Positions 3,230 through 59,636 of a DNA stretch of 64,000 bases are shown piece by piece. Position 1 is the first letter of the stretch, and every line of letters begins with the position of its first letter. Origin of the DNA: Candidatus Marinacidobacterales bacterium (GTDB lineage: Bacteria; Acidobacteriota; Vicinamibacteria; Marinacidobacterales; DATDRI01); contig CBDANW010000002.1 of the NCBI GenBank assembly GCA_965197825.1, forward strand, positions 213,271 through 277,270, in the 5' to 3' direction. The notes under the pieces are model-generated. The model saw only the letters and a program-made list of their open reading frames with translations. It was not told the origin of the DNA and searched no databases. The position numbers and the translations under genes are program-made.

Positions 3230-3346
3230 CCGCGACTGACGAGCCAAAGTGAAAGGGAACACGCATGCATCGCCATCACGAATCGGAAACGCTAGCCAGC
3301 GGTTCGCAATTGGCCGTGTATCAGTGCTGCCGGACCGACCTTTCCC

Positions 3347-3860
3347 GTCCTGTGCCAAAACTCGGCCCTTTTGAAATAGCCCCATAAATCAACAGCTTAG
3401 TGTCTGTGTTCGCGACCGGGCCAAGGGCCGTAGGCTCTACAATCGTCTTGGGCGGACGGGTCGTCACCATGCAGACGACCACCTGGTCGAGAGCGAATAT
3501 CCAAGCGTGTTCCTGAAGCTGTGTTTCCACGCTACACCGGTCGAGTCCACCGAGGGGCTACCGTCGCCGGCGACCATCTACGCGGCACGGCAGTAGTAGT
3601 TGAGAATGCCCCCAAGTCGCTCTCGCGACACGATGGGGCCAGCGTCAGTCGGGCTTGCCGGCAGAGGTGTGAGGAGCTCGTTGCCGAGACCTTGGTGGTT
3701 CCGTTTTGTGTGATAGTGCACTACGTATTCGGTTACCGCTGTCCGCAGGTGTCGCTCACTGAGAGGTACGAAGCGGTCGAGACACTCTCGACGTATGGAG
3801 AGAACGAATCTTTCCGCATATGCGTTCAGATTCGGACTATTAGCGGGAAGGCGAAGGGTG
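3347..3860 (-). mobile_element. IS481-like element 3' fragment (right TIR plus transposase C-terminus), minus orientation, truncated at about 3860
   Basis: Near-identical to the reverse complement of 23830-24336 of the complete copy. Readthrough ORF 3521-4288 is the antisense of the transposase C-terminus. Confidence 0.8.
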
Positions 3861-3955: not shown

Positions 3956-4149
3956 ATCTCTGCCCGTCGTGTCCCAAAAAAGAGAAACCAACTCCAGGCA
4001 GGTGCACCGGGACGTTTCGGATTAGAGGTCGTCTGGTCAAAATACTCGAACGCCCAGCGGGTCAGCAGTTTGCACCTTTCCAAGGGCTGCTTGAATTTGG
4101 CATCGCGGTCGGATACGTATTTCTTCCGGGTGCGCAGTTCGTTGCCTGC

Positions 4150-4325
4150 AGCTCGCCCCGCAGCCGATTTGAGCCAGCCGTGCGCACCCCCGGTGGGCCT
4201 GTCGCCCGCCACCCGCAGCCCAGGGGTCGGAAGCCAGTCCTGCGGCGCGAAATACCCTGGATTCTTCGCGGATTTCAAGGGCGTCTAAGCTGCTGATTTG
4301 TGGTCTATTTCAAAAGGGCCGAGTT
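4150..4325. repeat. Repeat family E (about 160 bp) fused to a solo TIR end of the IS481-like element
   Basis: gcagccgatttgagccagccgtgcgcacccccggtgggcctgtcgc...ggcgtctaagctgctgatttgtggtctatttcaaaagggccgagttttggcacaggacg. Copies at 6425-6636, 52500-52640 (reverse complement), 57640-57800 and a partial at 50505-50580. Confidence 0.7.
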
Positions 4326-4650
4326 TTGGCACAGGACGGGAACACCTTTCCGATTATCGCAGTCGTAAGGCTCAAGTGGGGGCAAGTGGAGCTATTCGGG
4401 TCTTGGTAGCAAACAAGCAGTAACGGTGCAAAACAGATCATCAAAATGCAATTTGAGGTCATTTCGGGGCTGAATCGAGCGCTAATCGCTCAGCTAATGA
4501 GAAGACGCCGTCGTGTCCAAAAACACAAACGAACTGGTGCTTCCGCAGTCAAGTGTTGGCGGCCGCCGCGTAACCTGTTCGCGTGCTAGAATTTTAGCCT
4601 GATTTCGAGAGGCGCAGTTCTTTCGTCGATGCCGGCTGGGCCGAGTTTTG

Positions 4651-6050: not shown

Positions 6051-6424
6051 CAGTTTTGGCACAGGACGAGGTCCGGCCATTCCACTCGCGGACGAGATGG
6101 GTGCTGGCGGAAACGGACCTCGCGGGAGCGGCGTTGCCTGGTGCCCCGTTCACCATGGCGGCCAGAATGCGCCGGGTTGCAGCCGAATGCCCGCCATGGG
6201 TCCGGCACTGGCGTTCGTGCAAGAGAACGCGGCGCAGGAAGATACGCGAGAGCGAGCTTGGCGGAGCAGCCCCGAAGGTTTGCTCCCAGATCCGCCGTAA
6301 GCTGGCGAAGTCCAAACCGTCCAAAACGACGTTCCGGCCAACTCCTGTATCCCGCGGCATCCCCAAACGTTCGCTCTTCTGCCCGGTAAAGTCCAGTCTA
6401 ATGAGGGACTTCCTGGTGCGAAGT

Positions 6425-6636
6425 CCGCTGCCCGCAGATCGCCCCGCAGCCGATTTGAGCCAGCCGTGCGCACCCCCGGTGGGCCTGTCGCTCGCCACTC
6501 GCAGCCCAGGGGTCGGAAGCCAGCCCTGCGGCGCGAACTACCCTCGATTCCGAGCGGATTCCAAAGGCGTCTAAGCTGCTGATTTGTGGTCTATTTCAAA
6601 AGGGCCGAGTTTTGGCACAGGACGCGATGGATGTAC
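6425..6636. repeat. Repeat family E plus solo TIR end
   Basis: Same module as 4150-4325. Confidence 0.7.
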
Positions 6637-8709: not shown

Positions 8710-9026
8710 CGTCCTGTGCCAAAACTCGGCCCTTTTGAAAGACCATGGCTGTAATTTAATGCACCGTAAAGTCTTAGCGTCATTTTACCAACACTTAATG
8801 GCGGAAGCACCCATGAGGTCTGTGTGAGCAGCAGGGCTGCCCGATCGAACGACGGCTGCCTGACCAACAGTAGGAATTGCACATGGTACGTCATGATGGA
8901 TCCGAAGATAACACCCTCGGGCCAGACGATTGTAAAGCCCACAGCCCTTGGCACCGTCGCAAAACACAGACGCTAAGCTGCTGATTTATCGGCTATTTCA
9001 AGAGGGCCGAGTTTTGGCACAGGACG
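8710..9026. mobile_element. MITE (about 317 bp): internally deleted, non-autonomous derivative of the IS481-like element
   Basis: Both TIR ends (cgtcctgtgccaaaactcggcccttttgaaa ... ttcaagagggccgagttttggcacaggacg) plus the first about 55 bp of the transposase 5' region. Near-identical copies at 20572-20888, 37798-38114, 44391-44706 and 57171-57480. Confidence 0.8.
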
Positions 9027-9826
9027 CCGTACCATTGTCCGCGGTGATCGTCTTGACCTGCTCCGGCACCCGCCGGAGCAACATCTTCGTTCGCTGACTA
9101 GTGCTGAACATGGTGCGGTCGGACAGCTTGCCGATCAGCGCATAGCCCGTCTTTCGTTCCACGAGCGTGGTTACGCAGTCCGGCGCGCCTTTTCCTATCA
9201 CGGTGTCGATCTCCCAGTGGCCAACGGCACTGCGCTTGTCGACACAAGGCGGCCGCTCGGAGATATGACGCTTCCCGGCCAGGTGGCCTCGGCTGTCATA
9301 GCTGTTGTGGCGCTTGCGTCTAAGTTTGGGCGAGCATCGAAGGTGGCGGTATAGATGTCCTCCGGCCTCCTTGTCCCGCCAGACGTGGGTGTAGATCGTC
9401 TCGTGGCTGATCGAGAGCTCGCCGTGAAGGCGCAGGTGGCCGGAGATCTGCTCTGGGCTCCAGTCAGCCTTAAGCTTCTTCTCCACCAGGGCAAAGTCGG
9501 CCTTTGTGAAGTACTGGTTCCGGCGAGACCGCGATCGTCGTCCGTTCGTTTTCTCGATGGCCTTGCTCGGCCGGTAGCATCCATCACTACGTGAGCTGTT
9601 CCTCCTGACCTCTCTCGAGATTGTGCTCCGGTGGCGCCCCAGGCGCCGCGCAATCTCGGCCGAGCAAAATCCCTCCCGTCGCAGCGCCGCGATGGTGTAT
9701 CGTTCTTCCGAGGTGATCTGGTAATAAGTCATTAGCGAGTCCCCATTCTTGGTTGTTTGAGGAATCGTGGCACATTCCAGGTCATCTCATCCGGGAGCTG
9801 TGTTGCACTTACTTTATGAATTCGGG
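9027..9826 (-). mobile_element. IS30-family element, 5' part only (transposase N-terminal 235 aa), truncated by the MITE at 9026
   Basis: MTYYQITSEERYTIAALRREGFCSAEIARRLGRHRSTISREV... (HTH) through ...TITADNGT. Same sequence as the element at 54532-57029. End gcacttactttatgaattcggg at 9826. Confidence 0.8.
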
Positions 9827-10442
9827 CTCCACGACATGCTCTTGCCCCGCTCCGGGGCGGGCGCGATGCCGTGCTCGGTGAGGATCCTCTTGATAGTGTT
9901 GCGTCCGAGTTCATGTCCGAGGTTCTTGAGTGTGCCTCGCAGACGCGTATATCCCCACGTCGGGTTCTCCTGCGCCACGCGCACAATGAGCTCACGGATG
10001 TCCTTCGCCGTCGGAGGTCGGCCTGGGCTCCGGTTCTTGCCGCCATCGTAGGCTGCGATGAGGCAGCGGTACCAACGCAGAAGCGTAGCGGGTGTGGCAA
10101 CGGACGCAATCTGGGCCAGCGCCTCGCGGCCCAAAGCCTGGGCCTTGACGGCGAGCCTGCGCCGGTCGTCGTCCGAGAGCCTGAGACGCTTGCCCCGAAG
10201 CCCGGCTCGGAGCACACGGTTCTCCTCTTGCAGGTAGTCGATCACATCCTGCTGCTGGCGGTTGACCCAGCCAGCTAGAACGAGCAGTAGGAATTGCACG
10301 TGGTACGTCATCATGGACCTGAAGATAACACCCTCGGGCCAGACGATTGTAAAGCCCACGGCCCTTGGTCCGGTCGCAAACACAGACACTAAGCTGCTGA
10401 TTTATGGTCTATTTCAAAAGGGCCGAGTTTTGGCACAGGACG
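9827..10442 (-). mobile_element. IS481-like 5' fragment (left TIR plus transposase N-terminal about 180 aa), minus orientation
   Basis: ORF 9814-10389 matches the first 180 aa of the 23037-24107 transposase. TIR ends at 10442. Confidence 0.8.
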
Positions 10443-12224: not shown

Positions 12225-12635
12225 CCCGGCCATTTCTGTCCGAGCCGCTGATCCACCCAGGGCCAGCGGCTTTTTCTTTTGCAGGCGAAGGCGTCCTGTG
12301 CCAAAACTCGGCCCAGCCGGCATCGACGAAAGAACTACGCCTCTCGAAATCAGGCTCAAACTCTAGCACGCGAACGGGTTACACGGCAGGCGCCAACATT
12401 TGACTACGGAAGCACCCGAGTTCCATTCTTCGCCGCTGTACGCTACTAGATGGAGGATCGCGATATGCGTCTCCATCGCGCGCAATCGACCGAGAGAACG
12501 ACGGCATAGCCTGTGAGAGGTAAGACTAAGATGCGACACTTCCCCATTCCCGTATGGATCGCTGTGCTCGCCACGGGCTCGTGGCACAACCCCGCCACGG
12601 CCCAGACGTCGTGGCGGGGCTTGGTGGTTGCCCCC

Positions 12636-12775
12636 GAATCCCGTCCTGTGCCAAAACTCGGACAGCCACGGCATCCCCAAGCGCCGGCCTACGGCCCTTG
12701 GCCCGGTCGCAAACACAGACGCTAAGTTGCTGATTTATGGCCTATTTCAAAAGAGCCGAGTTTTGGCACAGGACG
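12636..12775. repeat. Mini-MITE (about 140 bp): the two TIR ends of the IS481-like family joined
   Basis: cgtcctgtgccaaaactcgg...ctatttcaaaagagccgagttttggcacaggacg. Confidence 0.7.
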
Positions 12776-14673: not shown

Positions 14674-15067
14674 TCATCGGGGGAATCGTAACAAATCCTC
14701 GTGTCTGAAGAGCGTGAAGGAAGGGTTCAAGAAGGGCCAGGACAGCTCGAAGTGGGAAGCGGAAGACGAGATGCGGCTGTCGTCGTAATGATTGTTGAAG
14801 GATTCGAGGGCATTGTTGCTCTTGCCCCAGTGCTCCCACAGAGCGGCAAACGAAATCGGCGACCCGTCCTCAAGTGCCACAAAGTAGGGCTACTTGTCCT
14901 ACCCGGTCCGTTGCCACTCGAACCACCCATCGGCCGGCACCAGGCATCGACGCGAACGGAAGGCGCCGCCGAATGACGGCTTTGTGCGTCGGGCGGCCAT
15001 TTCGTGAGCCGATTCGAGGGCTGTGCTCCGCAAAAACTCGATCCGTCGTTGATTCCGCGAAAGTGTG
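14674..15067 (-). pseudogene. SRAP/YedK-family (abasic-site processing, DUF159) gene remnant: N-terminus replaced by an IS, two in-frame TAG codons
   Basis: ...KPSFGGAFRSRRCLVPADGWFEWQRTG-TAG-DK-TAG-PYFVALEDGSPISFAALWEHWG... . Catalytic N-terminal Cys region lost to the IS256-like insertion at 15068. Confidence 0.6.
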
Positions 15068-16488
15068 CCAATCTTAGTTGGGAATTGAAACGGCTCCAAA
15101 CCCCGTGGTTTGATGGCGTTGGACAAAACAAAATCAAGCCGCGAAGAAAGGAAGCCGAGATGGGAAGTCTGCTACGTTCGGTCAATAAACGCAAGAAGTC
15201 GCGTCGTTTGGGTGAGGTCGAGATGGTGAGGCACGAGGATTACGGGGAACTCGCGCTGGACGCCAAGGTAGAGATGATCCGTTCGTTGGTCCCCCTTGGT
15301 CTAATGCACGTTCACGAGTTGCTCGACGACGAAGTGAAGGCGTTGGCGGGAGAGCGATACTCTCGCAAGGACGAGCTGGAACGCGGTCGCCGTCCCGGAA
15401 GCAACCCGGGCACGGTAGGGCTTGGCGGCCAGCGGGTACCGATCCGTGTGCCACGGGTTCGGAGCATCGAGGGAGGAGAGATTCCGCTTCGCTGCTACGA
15501 GGCGGTGAGCCACGGCGGTGAGGTGAATGATCTTCTGCTGAAACGAGTTCTCTACGGAATCTCTTGTCGCAACTACGAGGCGGCAGCGGAAGCGATTCCG
15601 GGCGCCATCGGGCTGTCGAGCTCAACGGTGTCCCGAGGGTTCGTGCAAGCGAGCGCTGCGAAGCTGCGGGAGATGCAGGAACGGGATCTGACCGGCGAGG
15701 ATGTGGTGGCGCTGTTTCTGGATGGGAAGACATTCGCCGAGGCAACGATGGTCGTGGCTCTGGGCATCACGCTTTGCGGGGAAAAACGCTTCTTGGGCTT
15801 CGTGGAGACGGACACGGAGAACGGGCAGGTGTTGACGCCGTTCCTGCGTTCACTGCTCGAGCGGGGACTCGATATCTCCCAGGGTCTGCTGGTGATCATC
15901 GACGGCGGCAAGGGTCTCCAAGCGGCAGTCAAGAAGGCATTCCGTAAGCGGGCCCTGATACAACGCTGCCAGTGGCACAAACGTGAAAACGTAGTGAGCT
16001 ACCTGTCCAAGGGCGAGCAGGCGTCATGGCGCAAGCGGCTCCAGTGGGCCTACAACAGGCCGGAGTACGAAGAGGCCCTCACTGCGCTCGAGCAACTCCA
16101 CGGTGAGTTAGAAGAGCGGAACCAATCCGCAGCTGGCAGCCTGGAGGAAGGCCTCGAGGAGACGCTGACGTTGCATCGACTCGGCGTATACGGGGTGCTG
16201 GGCCGTTCGTTCAAGACGACGAACTGCCTTGAGTCCGTCAATGCTCTCGTCGAGGAACGCTGCGCGAAGGTCGACCACTGGAAGAACTCGAGCCAACGCC
16301 AGCGCTGGTTGGCAACGGCGCTCGTAGACATCGAACCGCGCTTGAGGAAGGTGGTGGGCTACCGCCATCTTCCCAAGCTTCGCGAAGCTCTCAAGCGGGA
16401 ACTGAAGATCGAGGCGAAGACATCAACCGTATCGAAGAAGAAGGTCGCTTAAACGTGAGCCGTGGAGAGTTTCAACTAAGAATGGGCT
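15068..16488 (+). mobile_element. IS256-family insertion sequence, type 2 (distinct from the five-copy element)
   Basis: IRs CCAATCTTAGTTGGGAA and CCATTCTTAGTTGAAA. A short end fragment at about 53640-53740. Confidence 0.75.
15160..16452 (+). CDS. IS256-family transposase (type 2)
   Basis: MGSLLRS... 430 aa, mutator-type DDE region (...LVIIDGGKGLQAAVKKAF...RCQWHKREN...). Confidence 0.8.
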   Translation: MGSLLRSVNKRKKSRRLGEVEMVRHEDYGELALDAKVEMIRSLVPLGLMHVHELLDDEVKALAGERYSRKDELERGRRPGSNPGTVGLGGQRVPIRVPRVRSIEGGEIPLRCYEAVSHGGEVNDLLLKRVLYGISCRNYEAAAEAIPGAIGLSSSTVSRGFVQASAAKLREMQERDLTGEDVVALFLDGKTFAEATMVVALGITLCGEKRFLGFVETDTENGQVLTPFLRSLLERGLDISQGLLVIIDGGKGLQAAVKKAFRKRALIQRCQWHKRENVVSYLSKGEQASWRKRLQWAYNRPEYEEALTALEQLHGELEERNQSAAGSLEEGLEETLTLHRLGVYGVLGRSFKTTNCLESVNALVEERCAKVDHWKNSSQRQRWLATALVDIEPRLRKVVGYRHLPKLREALKRELKIEAKTSTVSKKKVA

Positions 16489-16626
16489 TGACTCGATTCC
16501 GCAGTTCAGAGCTGCAAGGATTGGCCGTTTCGCGGCGAACGGATGGGGTGATCCGACGTCATTGTAAACGTCGAAAGGTTCGCTCTTGCGATCTATTTCA
16601 AAAGGGCCGAGTTTTGGCACAGGACG

Positions 16627-20571: not shown

Positions 20572-20888
20572 CGTCCTGTGCCAAAACTCGGCCCTTTTGA
20601 AAGACCATGGCTGTAATTTAATGCACTGTAAAGTCTTAGTGTCATTTTGCCAACACTTAATGGCGGAAGCACCCATGAGGTCTGTGTGAGCGGCAGGGCT
20701 GCCCGATCGAACAACGGCTGCCTGACCAACGGTAGGAATTGCACATGGTACGTCATGATGGATCCGAAGATAACACCCTCGGGCCAGACGATTGTAAAGG
20801 CCACGGCCCTTGGCACCATCGCAAAACACAGACGCTAAGCTGCTGATTTATCGGCTATTTCAAGAGGGCCGAGTTTTGGCACAGGACG
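20572..20888. mobile_element. MITE copy (IS481-like derivative)
   Basis: See 8710-9026. Confidence 0.8.
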
Positions 20889-22589: not shown

Positions 22590-22770
22590 ATGCTGATGGG
22601 GTGGTGCTTCCGCCATTAAGTGTTGGTGAGATGACGCTAAGACTTTACGCTGTATTAAATTACAGCCAAAATAGCGCTCACGACCTTCGCCGCGCGCTAA
22701 ATGGAGCGTAAGCGCTTTTTTTGCAAAGGGATACGTACACATCACCAACAGCAAACAGCGCAAGCACCAG
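22590..22770. repeat. Repeat family B (about 170 bp, consensus gcttgcgctgtttgctgttggtgatgtgtacgcatccctttgcaaaaaaagcg...ggtgcttccgccattaagtgttgg)
   Basis: Copies at 33425-33560, 34085-34260, 50690-50850 and 57440-57650, in both orientations. Confidence 0.7.
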
Positions 22771-22908
22771 ACCTCGAGCAGCGACGCCTTCCTTAAGTCG
22801 ATAAGGCAGCTACTGTCACTGACGATAAGCCGCATCGGCACCCTGCAGGCCCTTCAAGTCTGCCTCCACCTCCGGCATGGGAATCCGCAGAAGCTCCGTG
22901 CCCTTGCC

Positions 22909-24336
22909 CGTCCTGTGCCAAAACTCAGCCCTTTTGAAATAGGCCATCAATCAGCAGCTTAGTGTCTGTGTTTGCGCCGGGGCCAAGGGCCGTGCTCTTT
23001 ACAATCGTCTAGCCCGAGGGTGTTATCTTCAGATCCATGATGACGTACCACGTGCAATTCCTACTGCTCGTTCTAGCTGGCTGGGTCAACCGCCAGCAGC
23101 AGGATGTGATCGACTACCTGCAAGAGGAGAACCGTGTGCTCCGAGCCGGGCTTCGGGGCAAGCGTCTCAGGCTCTCGGACGACGAGCGGCGCAGGCTCGC
23201 GGTCAAGGCCCAGGCTTTGGGCCGCGAGGCGCTGGCCCAGATTGCGTCCGTTGCCACACCCGCTACGCTTCTGCGTTGGTACCGCTGCCTCATCGCAGTC
23301 AAGTACGATGGCAGCAAGAACCGGAGCCCAGGCCGACCTCCGACGGCGAAGGACATCCGTGAGCTCATTGTGCGCGTGGCGCGGGAGAACCCGACGTGGG
23401 GATATACGCGCCTGCGAGGCGCACTCAAGAACCTCGGACATGAACTCGGACGCAACACCATCAAGAGGCTCCTCGCCGAGCACGGTATCGCTCCTGCGCC
23501 GGAGCGGGGCAAGAGCATGTCGTGGAGCACCTTCATCAAGGCTCATTGGGGCGCCATCGCTGCGACAGACCTGTTCACCGTCGAGGTAGTGAACCCGTTC
23601 GGGCTCGTCCGCTACCATGTCCTGTTTGTCATCGATATCGCCACTCGCTGCGTGTGCATCGGTGGGATAACGTCGGACCCCAACGGGGAGTGGATGAAGC
23701 AGATGGCAAGAAACCTCACTGACATGTGGGATGGGTTCCTCCTTGGCAAGCGATACCTCATCCACGACCGGGACCCACTATTCACTGAGGCGGTACGTGG
23801 GCTGTTGAGAGATTCAGGCGTGAAGCCCCTTCGCCTTCCCGCGAATAGTCCGAATCTGAACGCATACGCGGAAAGATTCGTTCTCTCCATACGTCGAGAG
23901 TGTCTCGACCGCTTCGTACCTCTCAGTGAGCGACACCTGCGCACAGCGATAACCGAATACGTAGTGCACTATCACACAGAACGGAACCACCAAGGTCTCG
24001 GCAACGAGCTCATCACACCTCTGCCGGCAAGCGCGAATGACGCTGGCCCCATCGTGTCGCGAGAGCGACTTGGGGGCATTCTCAACTACTACTGCCGTGC
24101 CGCGTAGATGGTCGCCGGCGACGGTAGCCCCTCGGCGGGCTCGACCGGCGTAGCGTGGAAACAGCTTCAGGAACACGCTTCGATATTCGCTCTCGACTAG
24201 GTGGTCATCTGCATGGTGACGACCCGCCCGCCCAAGACGATTGTAAAGCCCACGGCCTTTGGCCCGGTCGCAAACACAGACACTAAGTTGCTGATTTATG
24301 GCCTATTTCAAAAGGGCCGAGTTTTGGCACAGGACG
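22909..24336 (+). mobile_element. Complete IS481-like (rve/DDE integrase-type) insertion sequence with about 105-bp TIRs; autonomous parent of the MITE family
   Basis: Left end cgtcctgtgccaaaactcagcccttttgaaataggccatcaatcagcagcttagtgtctgtgtttgcgccggggccaagggccgtgctctttacaatcgtct. Right end is its reverse complement. Single 356-aa ORF between. Confidence 0.85.
23037..24107 (+). CDS. IS481/IS3-superfamily DDE transposase (N-terminal HTH plus rve integrase core)
   Basis: ...[11 protein letters not shown]...[27 protein letters not shown]...[13 protein letters not shown]. 356 aa. Confidence 0.85.
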
Positions 24337-24843
24337 GGTTAGATGCTTGAGGAACTCGTCGATCGTGAACCCGCTGTCGGTGTCCACCGTCTTGATCTCT
24401 AGCGTGAGGAACTTCTGTTCCTCGAAAGACTTGCCACCGCGGGAGTTGTAGAGGACGTACCGGTTGCCGTCAGATAGAACGCCCCATTGAACCCCCATCG
24501 CGCCGAGGTAGGAGGTGAGCTGCTTGACGTGGTTCTTGTGGCCGATGTTGCTACCGAGTCGCTTGGCCTCCAAGAGCAGGATGGGTTTCGCAGACTTTTT
24601 TTTCGAGCTGTAAAACGCGTAGTCGACCGGCTCGTTGAATTCGGGCACGCGTGGCTCACTCTTGATGGAGTCAAAATCGGTAAAGTCCCACTGGAGCGCG
24701 CGAAACAACGGGTTGATGAGACCCTGTCGGGTGTCGGTCTCGGTGAGCTTTGCGTCGCCCACCTCGGTCTTGATGATTTGTTTCTTGAGCTTGAGGATGG
24801 TGTCCTTAAGTACCGCGTAGTCTATAGCCTTCCCCCTCCCGGC
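24337..24843 (-). pseudogene. HsdR-N-terminal-like PD-(D/E)xK nuclease-domain gene, copy 1: start codon mutated (ATA), 3'-truncated by the IS481-like TIR
   Basis: ...AIDYAVLKDTILKLKKQII...VDYAFYSSKKKSAKPILLLEAKRLGSNIGHKNHVKQLTSYLGAMGVQWGVLSDGNRYVLYN... . The longer copy is at 62403-63964. Confidence 0.55.
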
Positions 24844-25291: not shown

Positions 25292-25465
25292 TGTGCCTTC
25301 TATTTATTCATCCGCGCCGACCCGAACCTGATCGGTCTCCGATCTGCCGGGACTATGCCTGCATGATTTCGTCGTTTGTTCGCGCTCGGCCCTGGGCACG
25401 GCCGCAAACACAGACTCTAAGTTGCTGATTTATGGGCTATTTCAAAAGGGCTGAGTTTTGGCACA
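25292..25465. repeat. Composite repeat: family C plus solo TIR end
   Basis: The same family C to TIR-end junction recurs at 59455-59636. Confidence 0.7.
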
Positions 25466-25507
25466 GGACGGGCACGCACAAGGCCCGACTTGCAGAGGCG
25501 TCCAGAC

Positions 25508-28067: not shown

Positions 28068-29467
28068 GGTCAAGTCTTAATTTTCCTGTCAAATCTCCGT
28101 ACGGTTCCCCGCGCTCGGTTAAGCTGCTGATTCCTCCGACGTGCCTTGCGGGAGAAGCTCGTTGCGAAGCTCCTCGACTTTCCTAGCGGCGAAGACATCC
28201 ATCCTCACGCCGCGCCATTTGTTTGCGACGGCCAAGAGCACAGCGAACGAGAGTTTCATCGCGGCCTCCTCGGTGAAGAAGTGAGGAATGACCTTTGTGC
28301 GACGTTTGTGCTCTCCGAACGTGCGCTCAAGTAGATTCGACGTGCGAAGCCTTTTGTGATGCGCCGCAGGAAGGCGTAGCGCCTGAAGACACGCTTCGAG
28401 GGTCTCTTCCATGCACTTCATCGCGCTCGGGAATCGTTGACGGTACCGAGCGATCACCTCCCGACCCTTCTTCAGCCCTTGCTCGTAGCTGTTCGCATGG
28501 AACGACTCAAGGATGGCCGCCTTGAGTTCGTCGCGCACTTCCTTCGGAGCCTTGCCCAGGATGTTCTCGAGGCGGTGCTTCTGGCAACGTTGCTTGAGGC
28601 TTCGAGGGAAGACCTCTGCGATCGCTTTGAGCACTCCAGGATTCCCGTCCGTCACGATGAGCAACGGCTCCCTCATTCCTCGGGCCACTATCTCCTGCAA
28701 GAACCCCTTCCAGTTCTCGTAGGATTCTCGGTTGCCGACACCGATATGAAGAAGAACTCGCGTCCCATCAGCGCGATAGCCGGTCGCAACGAGGATGGGC
28801 TCTTTTCTCTCCGCTCCTTGGTGGTAGCGCAGGTACGTGCCGTCGAGCTCGAGATACAACAGCTTCTCGTTCGAGAGATCCCGTTTTCGAAACGCCTCGA
28901 AATCCTCCGACAGACACCGTGTGACCCGGCTCACCACCGACTTCGAGACACCCGTGCCGCTCAGCACGTCCGCGAACGTCGCCTCAATGTCACGCGTCGA
29001 CATCCCGTGGACGTACATCCGCGCGATCAGTTCATCGAGTTTCTCGGTCCGGCTCACGTAGGCGTCGAGAATCTTTGACTGAAACACCTTCTCTGTTTCT
29101 CGTACCCGCGGCACTTGCACCGTCACCGCTCCCTCGCCCGTGAGGACCCGATGCGACTCATACCCGTTGCGTCGTCCCTTCTCCTTCGTCGTTGCCGGAG
29201 CGTTCTCATAGTAGTTTCGACCCAACGCCTCCGTCACCTCGCGCTCCAACGCATATTGAAGCATCATCTGAGCTCCCGACCGGACGATCTCCGAGAGATT
29301 CATCTCCCCAAATACCAGTTGTTCCTCGAACTGCTTGAGCAATCGCTGACTCGGTAGTACCTTTCCCATGATGTATGGTTCTCCTTTTCTGTCCCCATGA
29401 CGGGGACGGGTTTGAGCTTGGGGAACCATACATCGTTTTTCTTTGACAGGAATCTTAAGACATCACC
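28068..29467 (-). mobile_element. IS256-family insertion sequence, copy B; no target-site duplication
   Basis: Same IRs as copy A. Flanks ttcttgat and gttgtctt do not match. Confidence 0.9.
28119..29369 (-). CDS. IS256-family transposase
   Basis: Differs by only about two residues from the 4702 copy over 416 aa. Confidence 0.9.
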   Translation of the reverse strand: MGKVLPSQRLLKQFEEQLVFGEMNLSEIVRSGAQMMLQYALEREVTEALGRNYYENAPATTKEKGRRNGYESHRVLTGEGAVTVQVPRVRETEKVFQSKILDAYVSRTEKLDELIARMYVHGMSTRDIEATFADVLSGTGVSKSVVSRVTRCLSEDFEAFRKRDLSNEKLLYLELDGTYLRYHQGAERKEPILVATGYRADGTRVLLHIGVGNRESYENWKGFLQEIVARGMREPLLIVTDGNPGVLKAIAEVFPRSLKQRCQKHRLENILGKAPKEVRDELKAAILESFHANSYEQGLKKGREVIARYRQRFPSAMKCMEETLEACLQALRLPAAHHKRLRTSNLLERTFGEHKRRTKVIPHFFTEEAAMKLSFAVLLAVANKWRGVRMDVFAARKVEELRNELLPQGTSEESAA

Positions 29468-33424: not shown

Positions 33425-33605
33425 GGCCGGTGCTTGCGCTGTTTGCTGTTGGTGATGTGTACGCATCCCTTTGCAAAAAAAGCGCTTACGCTCCATTTAA
33501 CGGGTGCTTCCGCCATCAAGTGTTGGTAAAATGACGCTAAGACTTTACGGTGCATTAAATTACAGCCATGGTCTTTCAAAAGGGCCGAGTTTTGGCACAG
33601 GACGG
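33425..33605. repeat. Composite repeat: family B plus solo TIR end
   Basis: See family B. Confidence 0.7.
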
Positions 33606-34019: not shown

Positions 34020-34325
34020 CGACTGGAGCGCGTCGTGTCCGAAAAAAACAAACGAACTCAAGACCGGCGCGCCACGGGCGTTTCGGATAGTGCTTGCGCT
34101 GTTTACTGTTGGTGATGTGTACGCATCCCTTTGCAAAAAAAGCGTTTACGCTCCATTTATCGCGCAGCGAAGGTCACGAGCGCTATTTTGGCTGTAATTT
34201 AATGCACCGTAAAGCCTTAGCGTCATCTCACCAACACTTAATGGCGGAAGCACCCGCGGATTCCAAGGGCGTCTAAGCTGCTGATTTGTGATCTATTTCA
34301 AAAGGGCCGAGTTTTGGCACAGGAC
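34020..34325. repeat. Composite repeat: family D (cgtcgtgtccaaaaa...cgtttcgga) plus family B plus TIR end
   Basis: Family D also at 3955-4040, 4515-4545, 17370-17420 (reverse complement) and 53540-53610. Confidence 0.65.
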
Positions 34326-34394
34326 GGGGTGGCGGATGGTGCAGTTCGGAGCTATCCGGTCTCGGCAAAAGGTATTTCTTCAGTTTCTTCAGTA

Positions 34395-34409
34395 TCCCCC
34401 CCCCCTTTT
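34395..34409. repeat. Homopolymeric C10-T5 tract
   Basis: tccccccccccttttt. Confidence 0.6.
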
Positions 34410-35159
34410 TCGCCGCGCGGGTAGTGCGGCAATGTAGCGAATACTCAGAGAAGCCCCGGTGCCCACATCGTTCTATCTGCTTCCTCTACAGTGATTTAAC
34501 GGACGCCGTCACGTGCTGGCCCACGCACACCTCATCGACGGGTGGTCGTTCGAGCCTGAATTCAAATCGGCTTCAATCAGCTTTTCTATACGGTAATTTC
34601 AACTTCCTTGACGCCTGAAAGAGGGCCGTGTCGTAAACCCTCCGGAGGAGGCTAAGGCCGTTACTCATTGTCGCAAAAGGCTTTACGCCTCATCGGCGGA
34701 CGTTTCGTCGACGGGAACACCTTTCCGGCTATCGCAGTCGGCAGGCTCGAGTGGGGGCGAGTGGAGCTTCCGATTCTTGGCTGGAAACGATCAGAAACAG
34801 AGCAAAACAGGCCATCAACTGGCAATTTGGGGCGATTTGGGGGCTTATCGTGTCCATTTTTGCGCTTAATCGCGCAGACAATGAGAAGACGCTTAACGCC
34901 TAGATCGCGTCTGAGGAGAAGGCGAATAGCGGAATTCGAATTGGTCAAACCTCGAATTCATCCAGCGGAGCTTTACGGAGGAGACGAAGATGGCTCCGCC
35001 AGACGGTGCAGTACAAGGAGCTATCCGCTCTTGTCTGGAAACCATGACAGGGAATTTGGGCCAGTTTGAGTCTGATTGGTGGAGGCCAGTGTCGGAGAGC
35101 AGCTTGCTGCTAACCGAGGCCATTCACGAAGTGGGCGCTGGCAGATGCAGCAGGCAGGC

Positions 35160-36303
35160 TCACAGCGTTGCAACGAGCACTCGCTGTTTCTCCCAATCGT
35201 CGGGAAGCGGATGATGCAGGAGGTAGCTCGAGGTCAGCCCAACGGGCTGGCGACCTTCGACAATGGCGCGGACAATGTCGGGGGCCAGGAAGGCATAGCG
35301 GATTGCCTTGCGCACGCGGTCCGTTGGGATGGCGTCTTCGGTGGCAATCTGCTCATAGGTTTTGCCTGCTTTGATCCGGTCGAGCCAGAAGAGGGCGTTG
35401 GCGATATTGCGCAGGAGTGTGCGGTCGACGGATTTCGTACGGATTTCGTGGGGTTGCCCAGAACGAGCTTGGTCTCGACGCCGCGTCGGCGCAAGCGGAA
35501 CGGCGCGTGGATACGGAGTGCATCCTCGCGAATGCGGTCGGACCCCATAGAGAGGCAAGCAGCGAACGCATTGCGGTCGAGGAGGATAGACACAGAGCCG
35601 GGGCTGATATCGACCCGCCGGATGAGGCGGAGCAGGCGGGCTACCGAGGCACTGTCATTATTACTACCGGAACACAGCCCGTCTAAAAAGCGACGCACCG
35701 AGGCGAGCTCTTGCATCGTCGGGGTGTGGGTCAGCGAGGCCGAGAAGGTCGTGGTATCCACATGCTGTCGGATGAGATGCACGACGGTCTGTTCCAGCAT
35801 CGGGGCGGGCAGGCGCCAGCCGGAGAGGTCCTTTTGGCCACTGTGCTGGATGAGGCGCCGGGAGACGTAGTAGCGGAGCCGTTGCCCGTTTTTCTTTTTG
35901 GTGTGGCTCGGCGTCAGCCGGTCCCCGGTCTCGTCGAAGAGCTTGCCTGCCAGTGGGGAAGGGGCGGCGCGGCCCTTCGTCGTGCGTCTCCTTGGTTTGG
36001 CAGCCCCTGCCTGCAGCTGCGCCTGGACCGCGTCCCAGAGCTCCGGAGCAATGATCGATGGATGCTGGCCCTCGTAGACACGCCTCTGGTGCCGGATGCG
36101 GCCGGCGTAGAGAGGATTGGTCAGCAGGCAGTGGAGGTGTCCGCGACGGAACGGCAGCCCTCCTGTCCGGGTTCCATCCGCGGCGAAGCGTTGCTTGGTG
36201 CGCAGTCCCAGATGGTCCGCCTCGGCCTTCACCTGCCGGAGCGTTCCGTGCTTCCGGTACAGCGCATAGAGCGTCCGACCGTGACCGTGAGCTACCCTCA
36301 GAA
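35160..36303 (-). pseudogene. Large serine recombinase, C-terminal two-thirds (recombinase domain, Cys-less zinc-ribbon-like region, C-terminal HTH-like tail). Frameshift near 35545. N-terminus cut by the IS at 36304.
   Basis: ...LYALYRKHGTLRQVKAEADHLGLRTKQRFAADGTRTGGLPFRRGHLHCLLTNPLYAGRIRHQRRVYEGQHPSIIAPELWDAVQAQL... . Tail continues in another frame (35160-35558). Confidence 0.65.
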
Positions 36304-37797: not shown

Positions 37798-38114
37798 CGT
37801 CCTGTGCCAAAACTCGGCCCTTTTGAAAGACCATGGCTGTAATTTAATGCACCGTAAAGTCTTAGCGTCATTTTGCCAACACTTAATGGCGGAAGCACCC
37901 ATGAGGTCTGTGTGAGCAGCAGGGCTGCCCGATCGAACAACGGCTGCCTGACCAACAGTAGGAATTGCACATGGTACGTCATGATGGATCCGAAGATAAC
38001 ACCCTCGGGCCAGACGATTGTAAAGCCCACAGCCCTTGGCACCGTCGCAAAACACAGACGCTAAGCTGCTGATTTATCGGTTATTTCAAGAGGGCCGAGT
38101 TTTGGCACAGGACG
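37798..38114. mobile_element. MITE copy (IS481-like derivative)
   Basis: See 8710-9026. Confidence 0.8.
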
Positions 38115-39099: not shown

Positions 39100-39398
39100 T
39101 TGAGGCGAGCCTGCGCCGGTCGTCGTCCGAGAGCCTGAGACGCTTGCCCCGAAGCCCGGCTCGGAGCACACGGTTCTCCTCTTACTGGTAGTCGATCACA
39201 TCTTGCTGCTGGCGGTTGACCCAGCCAGCTAGAACGAGCAGTAGGAATTGCACGTGGTACGTCATCATGGATCTGAAGATAACACCCTCGGGCCAGACGA
39301 TTGTAAAGCCCACGGCCCTTGGCCCGGTCGCAAACACAGACACTAAGCTGCTGATTTATGGCCTATTTCAAAAGGGCTGAGTTTTGGCACAGGACGCG
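39100..39398 (-). mobile_element. IS481-like 5' fragment (left TIR plus first about 60 codons)
   Basis: Matches 22909-23210 in reverse complement. Confidence 0.75.
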
Positions 39399-39404
39399 CA
39401 AGCT

Positions 39405-42004: not shown

Positions 42005-42261
42005 GGCGTCCTCCTCTCTTCTAAGCAAGACCGCGGTCACACTCCGACTAGGCGGAATGCAAGTCGAGGTCGTTGTCAGCCCGCCAGGTGGGGAGCATGG
42101 GCTGTTAGAACCAAACGCCGGAAAAACGGTAAGAAGCGAAGATGGCAGTCTGACAAGAAGGTCCGGCGCGCGCTGCTGGAAACCCTTCTCGACTGAGGAA
42201 TGTTCATTATAACATGATCTCTCTAAGTATTCAAGAACAAGCGCTTAACCGGGACGGTGAT

Positions 42262-43648: not shown

Positions 43649-43820
43649 TTGACCACCGGGACACGACTCCCCTCGCTCGGATTGTGCTATTCTCGGCGAC
43701 CCGGTGAGTCTCTCCCCTTGGAGAGAACCTGCTGAAGACAACCAAATTGTACCCTATCACACCTACACATCTGACACGGCAAATTTGTTGCCGCAGAGCA
43801 AGCGACGACTCGAGTCTGTT

Positions 43821-44390: not shown

Positions 44391-44706
44391 CGTCCTGTGC
44401 CAAAACTCGGCCCTCTTGAAATAGCCGATAAATCAGCAGCTTAGCGTCTGTGTTTTGCGATGGTGCCAAGGGCCGTGGGCTTTACGATCGTCTGGCCCGA
44501 GGGTGTTATCTTCGGATCCATCATGACGTACCATGTGCAATTCCTACTGTTGGTCAGGCAACCGTTGTTCGATCGGGCAGCCCTGCCGCTCACACAGACC
44601 TCATGGGTGCTTCCGCCATTAAGTGTTGGTAAAATGACACTAAGACTTTACGTGCATTAAATTACAGCCATGGTCTTTCAAAAGGGCCGAGTTTTGGCAC
44701 AGGACG
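44391..44706. mobile_element. MITE copy (IS481-like derivative), inverted orientation
   Basis: See 8710-9026. Confidence 0.8.
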
Positions 44707-48404: not shown

Positions 48405-48888
48405 ACATCCTGGGCAAGGCTCCGAAGGAAGTGCGCGACGAACTCAAGGCGGCCATCCTTGAGTCGTTCCATGCGAACAGCTACGAGCAAGGGCTGAAGA
48501 AGGGTCGGGAGGTGATCGCTCGGTACCGTCAACGATTCCCGAGCGCGATGAAGTGCATGGAAGAGACCTTCGAAGCGTGTCTTCAGGCGCTACGCCTTCC
48601 TGCGGCGCATCACAAAAGGCTTCGCACGTCGAATCTACTTGAGCGCACGTTCGGAGAGCACAAACGTCGCACAAAGGTCATTCCTCACTTCTTCACCGAG
48701 GAGGCCGCGATGAAACTCTCGTTCGCTGTGCTCTTGGCCGTCGCAAACAAATGGCGCGGCGTGAGGATGGATGTCTTCGCCGCTAGGAAAGTCGAGGAGC
48801 TTCGCAACGAGCTTCTCCCGCAAGGCACGTCGGAGGAATCAGCAGCTTAACCGAGCGCGGGGAACCGTACGGAGATTTGACAGGAAAA
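48405..48888 (+). mobile_element. IS256 3' fragment (last about 150 codons plus right IR)
   Basis: Matches 43120-43648. Confidence 0.85.
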
Positions 48889-49339: not shown

Positions 49340-49535
49340 GCGTCCTGTGCCAAAACTCAGCCCTTTTGAAATAGGCCATAAATCAGCAGCTTAGTGTCTG
49401 TGTTTGCGACCGGGCCAAGGGCCGTGGGCTTTACAATTGGCCCGAGGGTGTTATCTTCAGCTCCATGATGACCTACCACGTGCAATTCCTACTGCTCGTT
49501 CTGGCTGGCTGGGTCAACCGCCAGCAGCAGGATGT
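49340..49535 (+). mobile_element. IS481-like 5' fragment (left TIR plus about 30 codons)
   Basis: Matches 22909-23100. Confidence 0.75.
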
Positions 49536-50085: not shown

Positions 50086-50460
50086 AGTTCGCAGCGATTC
50101 GGATCCAGAGCGAGGAGTTCCACGTTTCGTGGATGTGCCGGCTGCTCCAGGTTTCTCGGAGCGGCTACTATGCGTGGCTGAGGCGGAAGTCCAGCCGCCG
50201 TGAACGAGATGACCTGCGCCTGTCCGTAAAAATCGTTGCGTCCTTCCGAGCCAACCGCGGAGTTTACGGAAGTCCTCGTGTTGTGGACGAGCTCCGTGCG
50301 GATGGTGAGTCTGTTGGGCGTCGGCGCGTTGCTCGCATCATGAGAGAGAAAGGCCTGTGCGCGCGCCTTCCGAGACGTTCTCGGAAGACGACGGATTCGT
50401 CGCACTCGCGCCCCGTAGCTCGAGACCTCGTGCAGCGCCAGTTCTTGCCGAAGACCCCGT
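50082..50460 (+). pseudogene. IS3-family transposase OrfB N-terminal fragment
   Basis: ...YGSPRVVDELRADGESVGRRRVARIMREKGLCAR... then TIR readthrough. Confidence 0.7.
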
Positions 50461-50689
50461 CCTGTGCCAAAACTCGGCCCTTTTGAAATAGCCCATAAAT
50501 CAGCAGCTTAGACGCCCTTGGAATCCGCGCAGAATCCAGGGTATTTCGCGCCGCAGGGCTGACTTCCGACCCATGGGGCTGGCGGATGAATAAATAGAAG
50601 GCACAGGCTCTGCGATAGGCGCTCCCGAGCAGACCTCTCCTCCAGACCATCCCTTTCGTCCAGCTGGCGCGCCCGAACTCCTATGCGAG

Positions 50690-52494: not shown

Positions 52495-52659
52495 CCGCCG
52501 GCCTGTGCCAAAACTCGGCCCTTTTGAAATAGACCACAAATCAGAAGCTTAGACGCCCTTGGAATCCGCGCGGAATCGAGGGTATTTCGCACCGCAGGGC
52601 TGGCTTCCGACCCCTGGGCTGCGGGTGGCGAGCGACAGGCCCACCGGGGGTGCGCACGG

Positions 52660-53005
52660 CGTGAAGAAAATCCGTTGCGCCATCTATACGCGAAAGAGCG
52701 CTGAAGAGGGTCTCGAACAGGATTTCAACTCCCTCGATGCGCAGCGAGAAGCCTGCGCCGCGTATGTCGCGAGCCAGAAAGCGGAGGGCTGGGTGCTGCT
52801 GCCAACTGTCTACGAGGACGGAGGGATCTCGGGAGGAACCCTGGAGCGCCCGGGCCTACAGCGCTTGCTCGCCGACATCGATGCCGGTCTCGTCGAGCAG
52901 ATCGTGGTCTACAAGGTCGACCGGCTGACCCGTTCCCTCTCCGACTTTGCAAAGCTCGTCGAGCGGCTCGAGGCGGCCGGCGCGGTTTTCGTCACGCTCA
53001 CCCCG
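52660..53005 (+). pseudogene. Serine recombinase N-terminal catalytic (resolvase) domain fragment, 3'-truncated by a TIR at 53003
   Basis: VKKIRCAIYTRKSAEEGLEQDFNSLDAQREACAAYV...IVVYKVDRLTRSLSDFAKLVERLEAAGAVFVTLT. Confidence 0.6.
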
Positions 53006-53222
53006 TCCTGTGCCAAAACTCGGCCCTTTTGAAATAGGCCATAAATCAGCAACTTAGTGTCTGTGTTTGCGACCGGGCCAAGGGCCGTGGGCTTTACAAT
53101 CGTCTTGGGCGGGCGGGTCGTCACCATGCAGATGACCACCTAGTCGAGAGCGAATATCGAAGCATGTTCCTGAAGCTGTTTCCACGCTACGCCGGTCGAG
53201 CCCGCCGAGGGGCTACCGTCGC
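53003..53222 (-). mobile_element. IS481-like 3' terminal fragment (right TIR plus about 110 bp)
   Basis: Matches the reverse complement of 24115-24336. Confidence 0.75.
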
Positions 53223-53514
53223 CGGCGACCTATTACGAGCAGAAAGCGCGAGAGAAGGACCCAAGCCGCCAGCCAGCGAGAGCGAAGCGCGACGTCCAAC
53301 TCTGCGGCGAGATTCGTCGTGTACGGCAAGAGAACTTTGACGTGTATGGCGTGCGCAAGGTCTGGCGTCAGCTTCGCCGTGAGGGTTGCGACGTGGCTCG
53401 ATGCACGGTGGCCCGTCTGATGCGTGAAATGGGCCTCCAGGGCGCGGTTCGTGGACGTCGATTCAAGACGACGAAGCCGGATTCGAGCGGCGCTCGCCCG
53501 ATGGACCTCCCATG
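53222..53514 (+). pseudogene. IS3-family transposase OrfAB internal fragment
   Basis: ...IRRVRQENFDVYGVRKVWRQLRREGCDVARCTVARLMREMGLQGAVRGRRFKTTKPD... Confidence 0.6.
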
Positions 53515-54337: not shown

Positions 54338-54439
54338 CCGGACGGGGCACGCGGGTGGTCCCTATGCCGCGTCGCGGTGGTAATAACTGAGCAAGCCGCC
54401 TAGTCGCTTACGACATCGCACGTTTCCGTGGGAACTTGG

Positions 54440-54531
54440 CCGTGAGGTTTCTTGCCACCTGCTTCATCCACTCCCCGTTTGGGTCCGAGGTCATCCCACC
54501 GATGCACACGCAGCGAGTGGCGATATCGATG
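54440..54531 (-). mobile_element. IS481-like internal fragment (left flank of the IS30 insertion)
   Basis: Reverse complement of about 23640-23735. Confidence 0.7.
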
Positions 54532-56717: not shown

Positions 56718-57029
56718 ACCGCGAGATCGTCGTCCGTTCGTTTTCTCGATGGCCTTGCTCGGCCGGTAGCATCCATCACTACGTGAGTTGTTCCCCCTGA
56801 CCTCTCTCGAGATTGTGCTCCGGTGGCGCCCCAGGCGCCGCGCAATCTCGGCCGAGCAAAATCCCTCCCGTCGCAGCGCCGCGATGGTGTATCGTTCTTC
56901 CGAGGTGATCTGGTAATAAGTCATTAGCGAGTCCCCATTCTTGGTTGTTTGAGGAATCGTGGCACATTCCAGGTCACCTCATCCGGGAGCTGTGTTGCAC
57001 TTACTTTATGAATTCGGGATGACAAACAG

Positions 57030-57170
57030 GACATGGTAGCGGACGAGCCCGAACGGGTTCACAACCTCGACGGTGAACAGGTCTGTCGCAGCGATAGCGC
57101 CCCAATGAGCCTTGAGGAAGGTGCTCCACGACATGCTCTTGCCCCGCTCTGGAGCCGGCGCGATACCGCG
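57030..57170 (-). mobile_element. IS481-like internal fragment (right flank of the IS30 insertion), followed by a MITE
   Basis: Reverse complement of about 23500-23640. Confidence 0.7.
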
Positions 57171-57480
57171 TCCTGTGCCAAAACTCGGCCCTCTTGAAAT
57201 AGCCGATAAATCAGCAGCTTAGCGTCTGTGTTTTGCGACGGTGCCAAGGGCTGTGGGCTTTACAATCGTCTGGCCCGAGGGTGTTATCTTCGGATCCATC
57301 ATGACGTACCATGTGCAAATCCTACTGTTGGTCAGGCAGCCGTTGTTCGATCGGGCAGCCCTGCTGCTCACACAGACCTCATGGGTGCTTCCGCCATTAA
57401 AGTGTTGGTAAAATGACGCTAAGACTTTACGGTGCATTGAATTACAGCCATGGTCTTTCAAAAGGGCCGAGTTTTGGGGT
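57171..57480. mobile_element. MITE copy (inverted), followed by family B and family E repeats to 57800
   Basis: See 8710-9026. Confidence 0.75.
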
Positions 57481-57804
57481 GCTTCCGCCATTAAGTGTTG
57501 GTGAGATGACGCTAAGACTTTGCGCTGCATTAAATTACAGCCGAAATAGCGCTCGCGACCTTCGCCGGGCGCCAAATAGAACGTAAGCTGTTTTTTTGCA
57601 AAGGGATACGTACACATTACCAACAGCAAACAGCGCAAGCACCGCCGGCCGTGCGCACCCCCGGTGGGCCTGTCGCTCGCCACCCGCAGCCCAGGGGTCG
57701 GAAGCCAGCCCTGCGGCGCGAAATACCCTCGATTCTGCGCGGATTCCAAGGGCGTCTAAGCTGCTGATTTGTGGTCTATTTCAAAAGGGCCGAGTTTTGG
57801 CACA

Positions 57805-58567
57805 GGACGGGGAACGTGACAACGGCGAGGCCATACTGGTGGAACCTGGCGATACCCTGATCTTCCCGCAGGGCAGTGTGAAGGTGATGCTCGCCGATGT
57901 TGACCGGTACTCCGAGCCGGGATCCGACGGGTACGCCCCGCTGGCCAACACTGTTTGGACGTGGATTGCTATTCCACCCCGCTCATTCAGCGTGTCGGGT
58001 AGCCACTACCTGCTCGCTGCGGCAAGGCGGTTGGACATGGCTCATGTGCATTGCATCGCAGCCCTCAGAACGCTCCAAGACTGTCCAGGAAAGCCGTTTG
58101 TGAAGGCGAGGGCACTCATGTTCGATGCTCTCGGACATGCCGAGTCCATGTGCATCGCCCTTAGTCGCGTAATCGGGATGACCCAGCAAGCGAACGCGAA
58201 GTTCTCAATTCGAGCTCCTGTGTCCAAAGTGATAACCGGAGTTGAGCCCGGTGTGCGCTCAATTCGAGATGCATTCGAGCACATCGATGAACGGACCGAA
58301 GGTCGGGCTCGGCACGAGGGGCCTGGCGACGCCATGTCGGTCTTCGATCAGTCGGACTTCTTTGTTTCCGGCGTTCTACGGTATGCGGGCCACTCTCTGG
58401 ATATCCAAGGCGAGGCGGTGCCTGCGATGATCGCTGCGCGCAAGTTCATTGCTGATGCTGCGGCCGAGGCGGGCAAGACCAAGACCATCAACGTGGAACT
58501 CAAGTGGACGTTCACGGAGGGAGCCGACTCCGCGCCGCCCGGTGTTTCAACTGCCGCGGCAGGTTGA
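57805..58567 (+). pseudogene. Hypothetical protein gene, 5'-truncated by a TIR
   Basis: ORF 57596-58567. The portion upstream of 57800 is repeat readthrough. No motif recognised. Confidence 0.35.
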
Positions 58568-59454: not shown

Positions 59455-59636
59455 AGCTGTACCTTCTATTTATTCATCCGCGCGCCCCGAACCTGATCGG
59501 TCTCCGATCTGCCGGGACTATGCCTGCATGATTTCGTCGTTTGTTCGCGCTCGGCCCTGGGCACGGCCGCAAACACAGACTCTAAGTTGCTGATTTATGG
59601 GCTATTTCAAAAGGGCTGAGTTTTGGCACAGGACGG
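59455..59636. repeat. Composite repeat: family C plus solo TIR end
   Basis: About 95% identical to 25292-25465. Confidence 0.7.

Follow-up and report, generated by a model that had tools for sequence, protein, structure and literature searches.

A high-copy IS3/IS481-superfamily insertion sequence and its short derivatives in Candidatus Marinacidobacterales, with a possibly non-canonical integration pattern

The 64,000-nt stretch of DNA analysed here (the window; positions 213,271 to 277,270 of contig CBDANW010000002.1, assembly GCA_965197825.1, from a Candidatus Marinacidobacterales bacterium) carries a full-length insertion sequence (IS) on its plus strand, at 22909..24336. The element is 1,428 bp long and is bounded by CGTCC-TGTGCC on one side and GGCACA-GGACG on the other; it opens with CGTCCTGTGCCAAAACTC and closes with the reverse complement of these bases. 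Its terminal inverted repeats, of approximately 105 nt each, occupy 22909..23013 (plus strand) and 24232..24336 (minus strand). A preliminary description of the window had reported near-perfect inverted repeats of about this length, and these were recovered as 117 nt at 88% by repeat finding and as 104 nt at 92% by BLAST, while in other full copies of the element 100-104 of 110 positions match. The outer 31 nt (CGTCC-TGTGCCAAAACTCGGCCCTTTTGAAA) are the sole part of the repeat present in every derivative. Between the repeats lies an open reading frame (ORF) of 356 aa (23037..24107, plus strand), which encodes a transposase with HTH_21/HTH_32 and rve_3 domains, and about 125 nt of unique sequence separate its stop codon from the right repeat. 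Rfam returned zero family matches across the whole window.

The transposase is encoded in one continuous ORF with no frameshift arrangement. Its candidate catalytic residues are D178, D244 and E279, in the motifs ATD(178)LF, IHD(244)RD and YAE(279)RF, and both the DD(35)E spacing and the presence of R286 seven residues past the glutamate are as in IS3/IS481-type transposases. The NCBIfam IS481 model (NF033577) is the top curated model, with 97.1 bits against a cut-off of 224 bits, followed by the IS3 model (85 bits, cut-off 160 bits), while a sequence search of the Protein Data Bank gave zero matches. There are more than 8,000 homologues, many of them of about 357 aa, at approximately 65% identity and from other phyla, and those on plasmids are named just "integrase core domain-containing protein" by the Prokaryotic Genome Annotation Pipeline. 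The TGTGCC...GGCACA ends are kept down to relatives of 65% identity, with five more conserved bases (CGTCC) outside them. Because the IS481 and IS3 scores lie below their cut-offs and the plasmid homologues have such a generic annotation, the transposase is assigned, on sequence grounds, to the IS3/IS481 superfamily, as a member of a large clade left unnamed by current curated models. The name "IS481-like", given in the preliminary description, therefore holds as a statement of resemblance, the IS481 model being the best curated one, and it is in this sense that it is used below. No membership in the IS481 family is claimed, since neither the score of 97 bits nor the absence of a target-site duplication agrees with it; the element is filed as one that would work like IS481/IS3-type elements.

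The long inverted repeat has a restricted distribution among relatives of the element. Those with 65-70% protein identity are compact (1.2 kb), have inverted repeats of approximately 20-40 nt, the right one overlapping the stop codon, and have the tip CG-TnC-TGTGCCAAAACTC in common with the window element, while in a relative with 84% identity the element is already of the 1.43-kb, long-repeat form. Because of this distribution, the long repeat appears to be derived in this lineage and not a trait of the transposase clade. In this lineage, the right end would have been swapped for an inverted copy of the left end together with about 125 nt of new sequence.

The autonomous element is accompanied by short, non-coding units that carry its termini, here referred to as miniature inverted-repeat transposable elements (MITEs). 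Five of about 317 bp, with a mean column identity of 95%, are present in the window, at 8710..9026, 20572..20888 and 37798..38114 on the minus strand and at 44391..44706 (316 bp) and 57169..57477 on the plus strand, and the loci examined hold 11 such units. The copy at 37798 is 99% identical to that at 8710, and the 31-nt end of the last one has been cut short by a 166-bp repeat. All five had been described as internally deleted copies that retain both long repeats. Their presence stands, with the last one truncated, but one of their ends is only 31 nt long: each unit consists of a 31-nt terminus, a module of approximately 125 nt that is unrelated to the IS and includes half, in inverted orientation, of the separate 166-bp repeat, and then IS positions 160-1. 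The 317-bp units are not simple internal deletions of the IS. A smaller derivative, placed by the preliminary description at 12636 with a size of 140 bp, also exists, with corrected bounds of 12642..12775 (134 bp, minus strand); it consists of a 20-nt terminus, 26 nt and an 88-nt inverted repeat.

A second group of units combines two unlike ends. The second terminus, TGTGCCTTCTATTTATTCATCC, stops exactly at CACA, is present in 91 copies in the DNA examined, six of them in the window (3859, 22389, 25292, 47409, 50605 and 59458), and is found almost solely paired with the IS481-like terminus, with which it shares TGTGCC only. The resulting hybrid units, with one IS-type and one TGTGCCTTCTATTTATTCATCC end, fall into sharp size classes of 147-149 bp (n=17), 178 bp (n=8), 309 bp (n=11) and 92 bp (n=3), and are as abundant as the 317-bp unit. 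In one class of ends, 89 nt or 56 nt of the IS terminus are kept and the unit finishes in TGTGCCTTCTATTTATTCATCC. In the window, a 179-bp hybrid lies at 25292..25470 (minus strand), with its TGTGCCTTCTATTTATTCATCC end at 25292 and its IS-type end at 25470; a 178-bp unit of the same type lies at 59458..59635 (minus strand); and a 148-bp hybrid at 50458..50605 (plus strand) consists of 56 nt of the IS terminus, about 70 nt of a serine-recombinase element and 22 nt of the second terminus.

This serine-recombinase element contains a DUF2924 gene and a gene for a large serine recombinase of 553 aa, and ends with the 56-nt terminus lead into its 5' region. At its start, the intact form, found in locus L061 (1817-4623), carries a 56-nt stretch of the IS481-like terminus; the opposite end was not found. 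At 6069..6624 of the window (minus strand), the 56-nt IS-type terminus is joined to the 5' region of this element, and further composite ends of this kind lie at 4123..4338 (minus strand; truncated, 216 bp), 52499..52660 (plus strand; continuing to 53003 with a resolvase fragment) and 57644..57809 (minus strand; 166 bp). A fragment of the element extends over 34320-36282. One internal site, ccaccccgtc^TGGCCAATTGTGGCAC, is itself terminus-like and carries an insertion both in the window and in three loci: at 34273..34326 (minus strand), a 56-nt terminus with the 166-bp repeat lies inside the element, and the same site is occupied in L017, L071 and L096. Several of the more than 12 solo ends counted earlier are thus complete hybrid units of 148-179 bp or ends of the DUF2924 and serine-recombinase element.

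In total, 27 sites in the window match the 24-nt terminal core with up to two mismatches (0.00 expected from shuffles), which confirms the previous count of more than 25 ends in 64 kb. The family had also been said to dominate the window, which needs correcting, as IS481-like-derived sequence makes up approximately 10% of the bases and repeats in total 30%, much of it IS256-like. In a cross-genome scan with one genome per species, whose counts are lower bounds, the core was found in at least ten assemblies of Candidatus Marinacidobacterales (chromosomes of 4-10 Mb), in no fewer than 100 stretches, and all matches listed belong to such assemblies; the family is therefore not the mere local pile-up that had been considered. 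The density in the window, 3.4 ends per 8 kb, makes it a hot spot compared with approximately 2.2 per 8 kb in loci picked for carrying a match, although the family is genome-wide and common to several species. The window copy shares 95-98% identity with seven other full-length copies, six of which have an ORF of 355-359 aa. The exact window protein was found on two contigs, one of 2.4 Mb and an independent one of 10 kb, and the 90%-identity cluster that contains it has 1,511 members. Since six of the seven other full copies keep their ORF, the copies are 95-98% identical and the two closest MITEs (8710 and 37798) are 99% identical, the family is probably still active, in agreement with the active or recently active non-autonomous family proposed at first.

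The junctions of these units were studied through 245 ends, in loci chosen for carrying the terminus. The bases CGTCC outside TGTG are 96% conserved over the 245 ends, and the four bases beyond them prefer A-C-C-C (66%, 58%, 85% and 75%, respectively), a preference that is the same at both ends of the element, in inverted orientation. Copies of the flank without the element exist for 149 ends, and 84 distinct flanks of the IS-type end were used for a logo of the unoccupied target. This reads A (69%), C (57%), C (82%), C (65%) before the junction and C (62%), G (55%), T (60%), C (43%) after it, followed by random sequence, which gives the consensus ACCCCGTC. The homology between occupied and unoccupied sequences ends between just before CGTCC (23 cases) and one base before TGTG (17 cases). 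Because of where this homology stops, ACCC must, on the alignments, be target sequence, and CGTCC must be supplied by the element in at least 23 of the 84 junctions (at least a quarter). The preferred target deduced in this way, ACCC^CGTC, resembles the element's own tip CGTCC. The second terminus has a matching flank pattern, the flank being followed by N-C(65%)-T(75%).

Target-site duplications, which the preliminary description had named as a check, were absent from all 38 IS-type pairs, whether the two sides were compared symmetrically or with an asymmetric shift (offsets -6 to +11, k 2-8), and from 38 hybrid units; seven compact relatives from other organisms showed none either. Elements of two other families in the same window, which serve as internal controls, have duplications of 9 bp (IS256-like) and 4 bp (IS30-like). 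Moreover, the unoccupied counterparts of a flank do not run on into the other flank of the unit. According to a two-flank test that tolerates offsets and either orientation, and for which 15 units have homologues of both flanks, one of these units is a simple two-sided insertion and 14 are not, the 99%-identical MITEs at 8710 and 37798 being among the latter. The sole clean insertion, at L058 5959-6267, has its empty site in L004; its duplication is of 2 nt at most and lies next to the end-like sequence GCACAG. The empty site reads ...gcggagcacag^cccttggccc... and the occupied one ...gcggagcacag-GT-CGTCC...GGCACA-G-gcccttggccc....

One-sided junctions are also evident within the window. The MITE at 8710 adjoins an IS30-like element without its first 275 bp, which lies on its right and continues in the copy at 54807, while its left flank is unrelated. 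The MITE at 57169 adjoins an IS481-like copy broken at approximately IS position 575, and that at 20572 a TonB-dependent receptor barrel without its N-terminal part. The full IS adjoins a gene of the HsdR_N type, and the similarity to a paralogue of this gene at 63476 breaks off precisely where the IS ends. Gene remnants had been reported at several insertions, and they adjoin ends at 20889 (TonB-dependent receptor barrel), 24337 (HsdR_N), 53003 (resolvase fragment) and 16639 (a weak Omp85 match). The HsdR_N-like fragment at 24337-24839 is duplicated at 63476-63978, over 503 bp with 98.6% identity starting exactly at the IS end. This duplicate was considered as an empty site and rejected, as the homology stops exactly at that point.

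Other ways of accounting for the junctions were also considered and rejected. A 2-bp CG duplication, with an element that would run from TCC to GGA, is contradicted by junctions within IS copies (...ccg-CG-TCC), which have an extra CG, and the 99%-identical empty copy of the IS30-like element has CT. Blunt insertion into a palindrome such as CCGTCC..GGACGG was discarded because few such sites exist (1-20 in 859 kb) and because complementarity between left and right flanks does not exceed that of shuffled pairs. A search for empty sites with joined flanks gave ambiguous matches only. Back-to-back ends with a fixed spacer of 3-4 bp, the relics expected from circle junctions, were looked for and none was found.

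The core reading of these results, that of an autonomous DDE (aspartate, aspartate, glutamate) insertion sequence with a swarm of non-autonomous relatives, is secure. With unusual integration added to it, that is, an autonomous IS of the IS3/IS481 superfamily, its non-autonomous derivatives and an atypical way of joining to the target, it is probably the best explanation overall. The transposase would bind the outer 31 nt or so of the termini and move the short units in trans, as suggested by the 31-nt terminus that they all share. The route would probably be copy-out/paste-in, by analogy with the relatives of the transposase, and the ends may join separately to end-like target sites, which would lead to deletions and rearrangements. 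Joining of this kind has precedents in the insertion of IS911 beside end-like sequences and in the duplication-free reactions of IS26 (PMC2909936, PMC7986276), and it is proposed here as a hypothesis because the sample is biased to repeat-rich DNA.

The missing duplications and one-sided junctions could be intrinsic to this element or the product of later scrambling. A canonical IS and MITE family could have made ordinary duplications, with recombination and deletion among its hundreds of copies parting the flanks afterwards. This is a possible, if rather doubtful, account. It is in keeping with a window that is 30% repeats, in which IS256-like, IS30-like and other elements are nested and many gene remnants are present; with the differences of 1-10% among unit copies, which make many of them old; and with the existence of one clean simple insertion. 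Scrambling would nevertheless keep the left and right flank types distinct, and what is observed is the same ACCC, inverted, at both ends. Such a pattern cannot be given by a staggered cut at one site, since an insertion that makes a duplication at the non-palindromic ACCC^CGTC cannot leave ACCC on both sides, nor can it be created by scrambling. The youngest MITE pair, with its 99% identity, is already one-sided, the seven compact relatives from other organisms also have no duplications, the clean insertion itself is essentially without one (2 nt at most), and other IS families of the same window retain theirs. For these reasons the pattern is, on balance and with moderate preference, regarded as an intrinsic property of the element.

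Several points weigh against this interpretation, or against parts of it. The L058/L004 pair, with its clean empty site, indicates that simple insertion does happen. Most of the unoccupied counterparts are other repeats, and the bias of the sample is towards the repeat-rich DNA in which secondary rearrangement is likeliest. Neither a transposition intermediate nor insertion polymorphism within one species was seen, and an autonomous element with the second terminus TGTGCCTTCTATTTATTCATCC was not found in the loci examined. The reading frame is kept across nine of 12 junctions without extra bases, although most of the ORFs involved look spurious, so that this is suggestive only, and a phase test based on the GC content of third codon positions (GC3) across junctions rested on too few coding flanks to inform. 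In addition, a close relative may already be named, as the placement was judged by NCBIfam models.

The termini have also been considered as attachment sites of the large serine recombinase found with DUF2924, which would move the short units with CG as its crossover dinucleotide. In many loci, the operon of DUF2924 and the recombinase has the terminus fused to its 5' end, which invites this idea, as do the CG at both ends, the inverted-repeat flank consensus and the lack of duplication, which together give the appearance of attL and attR sites. It is nonetheless highly improbable: the unoccupied sites read ACCC-CG-TC..., with the consensus ACCCCGTC, and not the palindromic attB ACCC-CG-GGGT; two junctions within IS copies have an extra CG that a CG crossover would not leave, and the 99%-identical empty copy has CT; and the tip CG-TnC-TGTGCCAAAACTC accompanies the DDE transposase in distant relatives. 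Least probable of all, and hardly credible, is that the one-sided junctions are assembly artefacts from contigs mis-joined at repeats, since, although all genomes concerned are metagenome assemblies, a 10-kb contig that comes independently from another assembly shows the same order of IS and HsdR_N with a left junction identical over 181 nt, the same junction types are found in several genomes, and insertions of the IS256-like repeats, which are longer and more alike, are clean.

Compared with known systems, the window element, read as an autonomous IS with unusual integration, combines familiar and unfamiliar features. With the IS481 family, including the IS1202 group, it has in common a single unframeshifted DDE ORF, an N-terminal helix-turn-helix, an rve_3 core and a size of about 1-1.4 kb, and the TGT...ACA core of its ends may be a further resemblance. 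Duplications in this family range from 2 to 15 bp and are mostly of 6 bp, and the inverted repeats of its eukaryotic relatives (IS481EU) are mostly shorter than 50 bp (PMC10045372). The window element, in contrast, has no duplication, repeats of about 105 nt and CGTCC outside TGTG. IS3-family elements, represented by IS911, show the same catalytic fold and TG...CA ends, and the window element differs from them in not having the two-ORF layout with a -1 frameshift. Members of the IS3 family make duplications of 3-5 bp. The circle of IS911 has abutted ends with 3-4 bp of former flank between them (PMC2909936), and IS911 is described as able to insert beside end-like sequences, by single-end transfer and processing by host enzymes (cited in PMC7986276). 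The latter resembles the end-mimicking target proposed here, while abutted ends with a fixed 3-4-bp spacing were not seen. IS26 and the IS6 family, which move by intramolecular replicative transposition and by a targeted conservative reaction, leave copies without matching flank duplications, adjacent deletions and junctions beside the end of another copy (PMC7986276). This duplication-free outcome is similar to that of the window element, although the transposase families are unrelated and IS26 targets a full identical IS end, as opposed to a motif of about 8 nt.

The short units are like the IS-derived MITEs of other bacteria in that they are non-coding and multi-copy, occur in discrete sizes with differing flanks and carry the termini of a co-resident autonomous element. 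They depart from the classic MITE structure first attributed to them, as they have no target-site duplication, one of their repeats is just 31 nt long, their internal modules are borrowed from other repeats, and most size classes join two unlike termini that share TGTGCC only. Described as an IS with MITEs, the family would be a routine annotation of an undescribed lineage (no paper in the literature library searched names Marinacidobacterales), and such a swarm is ordinary in kind; what stands out is the occurrence of duplication-free copies beside a sequence that mimics the tip. The family thus represents a high-copy element with a possibly non-canonical integration pattern, and seems to be one of the chief causes of gene loss and rearrangement in these acidobacterial genomes, which are unusually large (4-10 Mb). 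If the pattern is truly intrinsic, a very common, unnamed transposase clade would depart from textbook integration by staggered cuts. A wider and decidedly tentative proposal is that this rve_3 clade as a whole, with its more than 8,000 homologues, integrates without duplication, each end joining alone to an 8-nt ACCC^CGTC target that mimics flank plus tip. The element would then be as much a rearrangement engine as an insertion, and could mobilise unlike-ended units that share only TGTGCC.

The remaining traces of the family in the window are fragments of the IS and isolated termini. The 3' 511 bp of the IS are found at 3346..3858 (minus strand), cut at 3858/3859 by a second-type terminus, and the 3' 227 bp at 53004..53230 (minus strand), where they cut an ORF for a resolvase N-terminal domain. 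Fragments of the 5' part are located at 9826..10442 (620 bp, minus strand), at 39105..39396 (292 bp, minus strand), beside a fragment of a type I restriction R subunit, and at 49341..49535 (195 bp, plus strand). Two internal fragments on the minus strand, at 54434..54531 (element positions 821-724) and 57018..57168 (element positions 727-577), are the left and right halves of a copy split by an IS30-like element. Finally, a 31-nt terminus with a repeat module, built as in the 317-bp MITE, lies at 33574..33604 (minus strand), a solo terminus of about 34 nt, followed by the weak Omp85 C-terminal remnant, at 16593..16626 (minus strand), and a 23-nt terminus fragment at 12292..12314 (plus strand).

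Other mobile elements contribute to the repeat content of the window. An IS256-family element of 1.4 kb, with a Transposase_mut ORF of 436-437 aa, is present in full copies at 4651-6050, 28068-29467, 42256-43654 and 55319-56717 and in a partial one at 48403-48912. Because the copies are 99.3-99.9% identical, they suggest very recent activity of this element. The copy at 55319 is a clean insertion, with a 9-bp duplication as compared with the uninterrupted sequence at 9530-9538. It interrupts an IS30-like element of approximately 1,077 bp (HTH_38 and rve ORFs) at 54532-57017, of which a truncated copy lies at 9027-9825. The interrupted IS30-like element is itself inserted in an IS481-like copy, with a 4-bp duplication that corresponds to positions 724-727 of the latter. 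The 166-bp repeat mentioned above occurs at 22603-22771, 34090-34254, 50689-50856 and 57478-57643, and has short inverted ends (GGTGCTTSCGC) as well as a GC-rich stem with a run of T after it. At 15004-16452 and 36386-37630 lie two more, distinct ORFs of the Transposase_mut (IS256-family) type, and fragments of restriction-modification genes are located at 39343-40506 and 44872-46332, which suggests that the window may be an island of defence genes or mobile elements. Two adjacent minus-strand ORFs of 186-188 aa are spanned by a tandem duplication (62430-62835 and 62835-63239) of approximately 405 bp with 88% identity.

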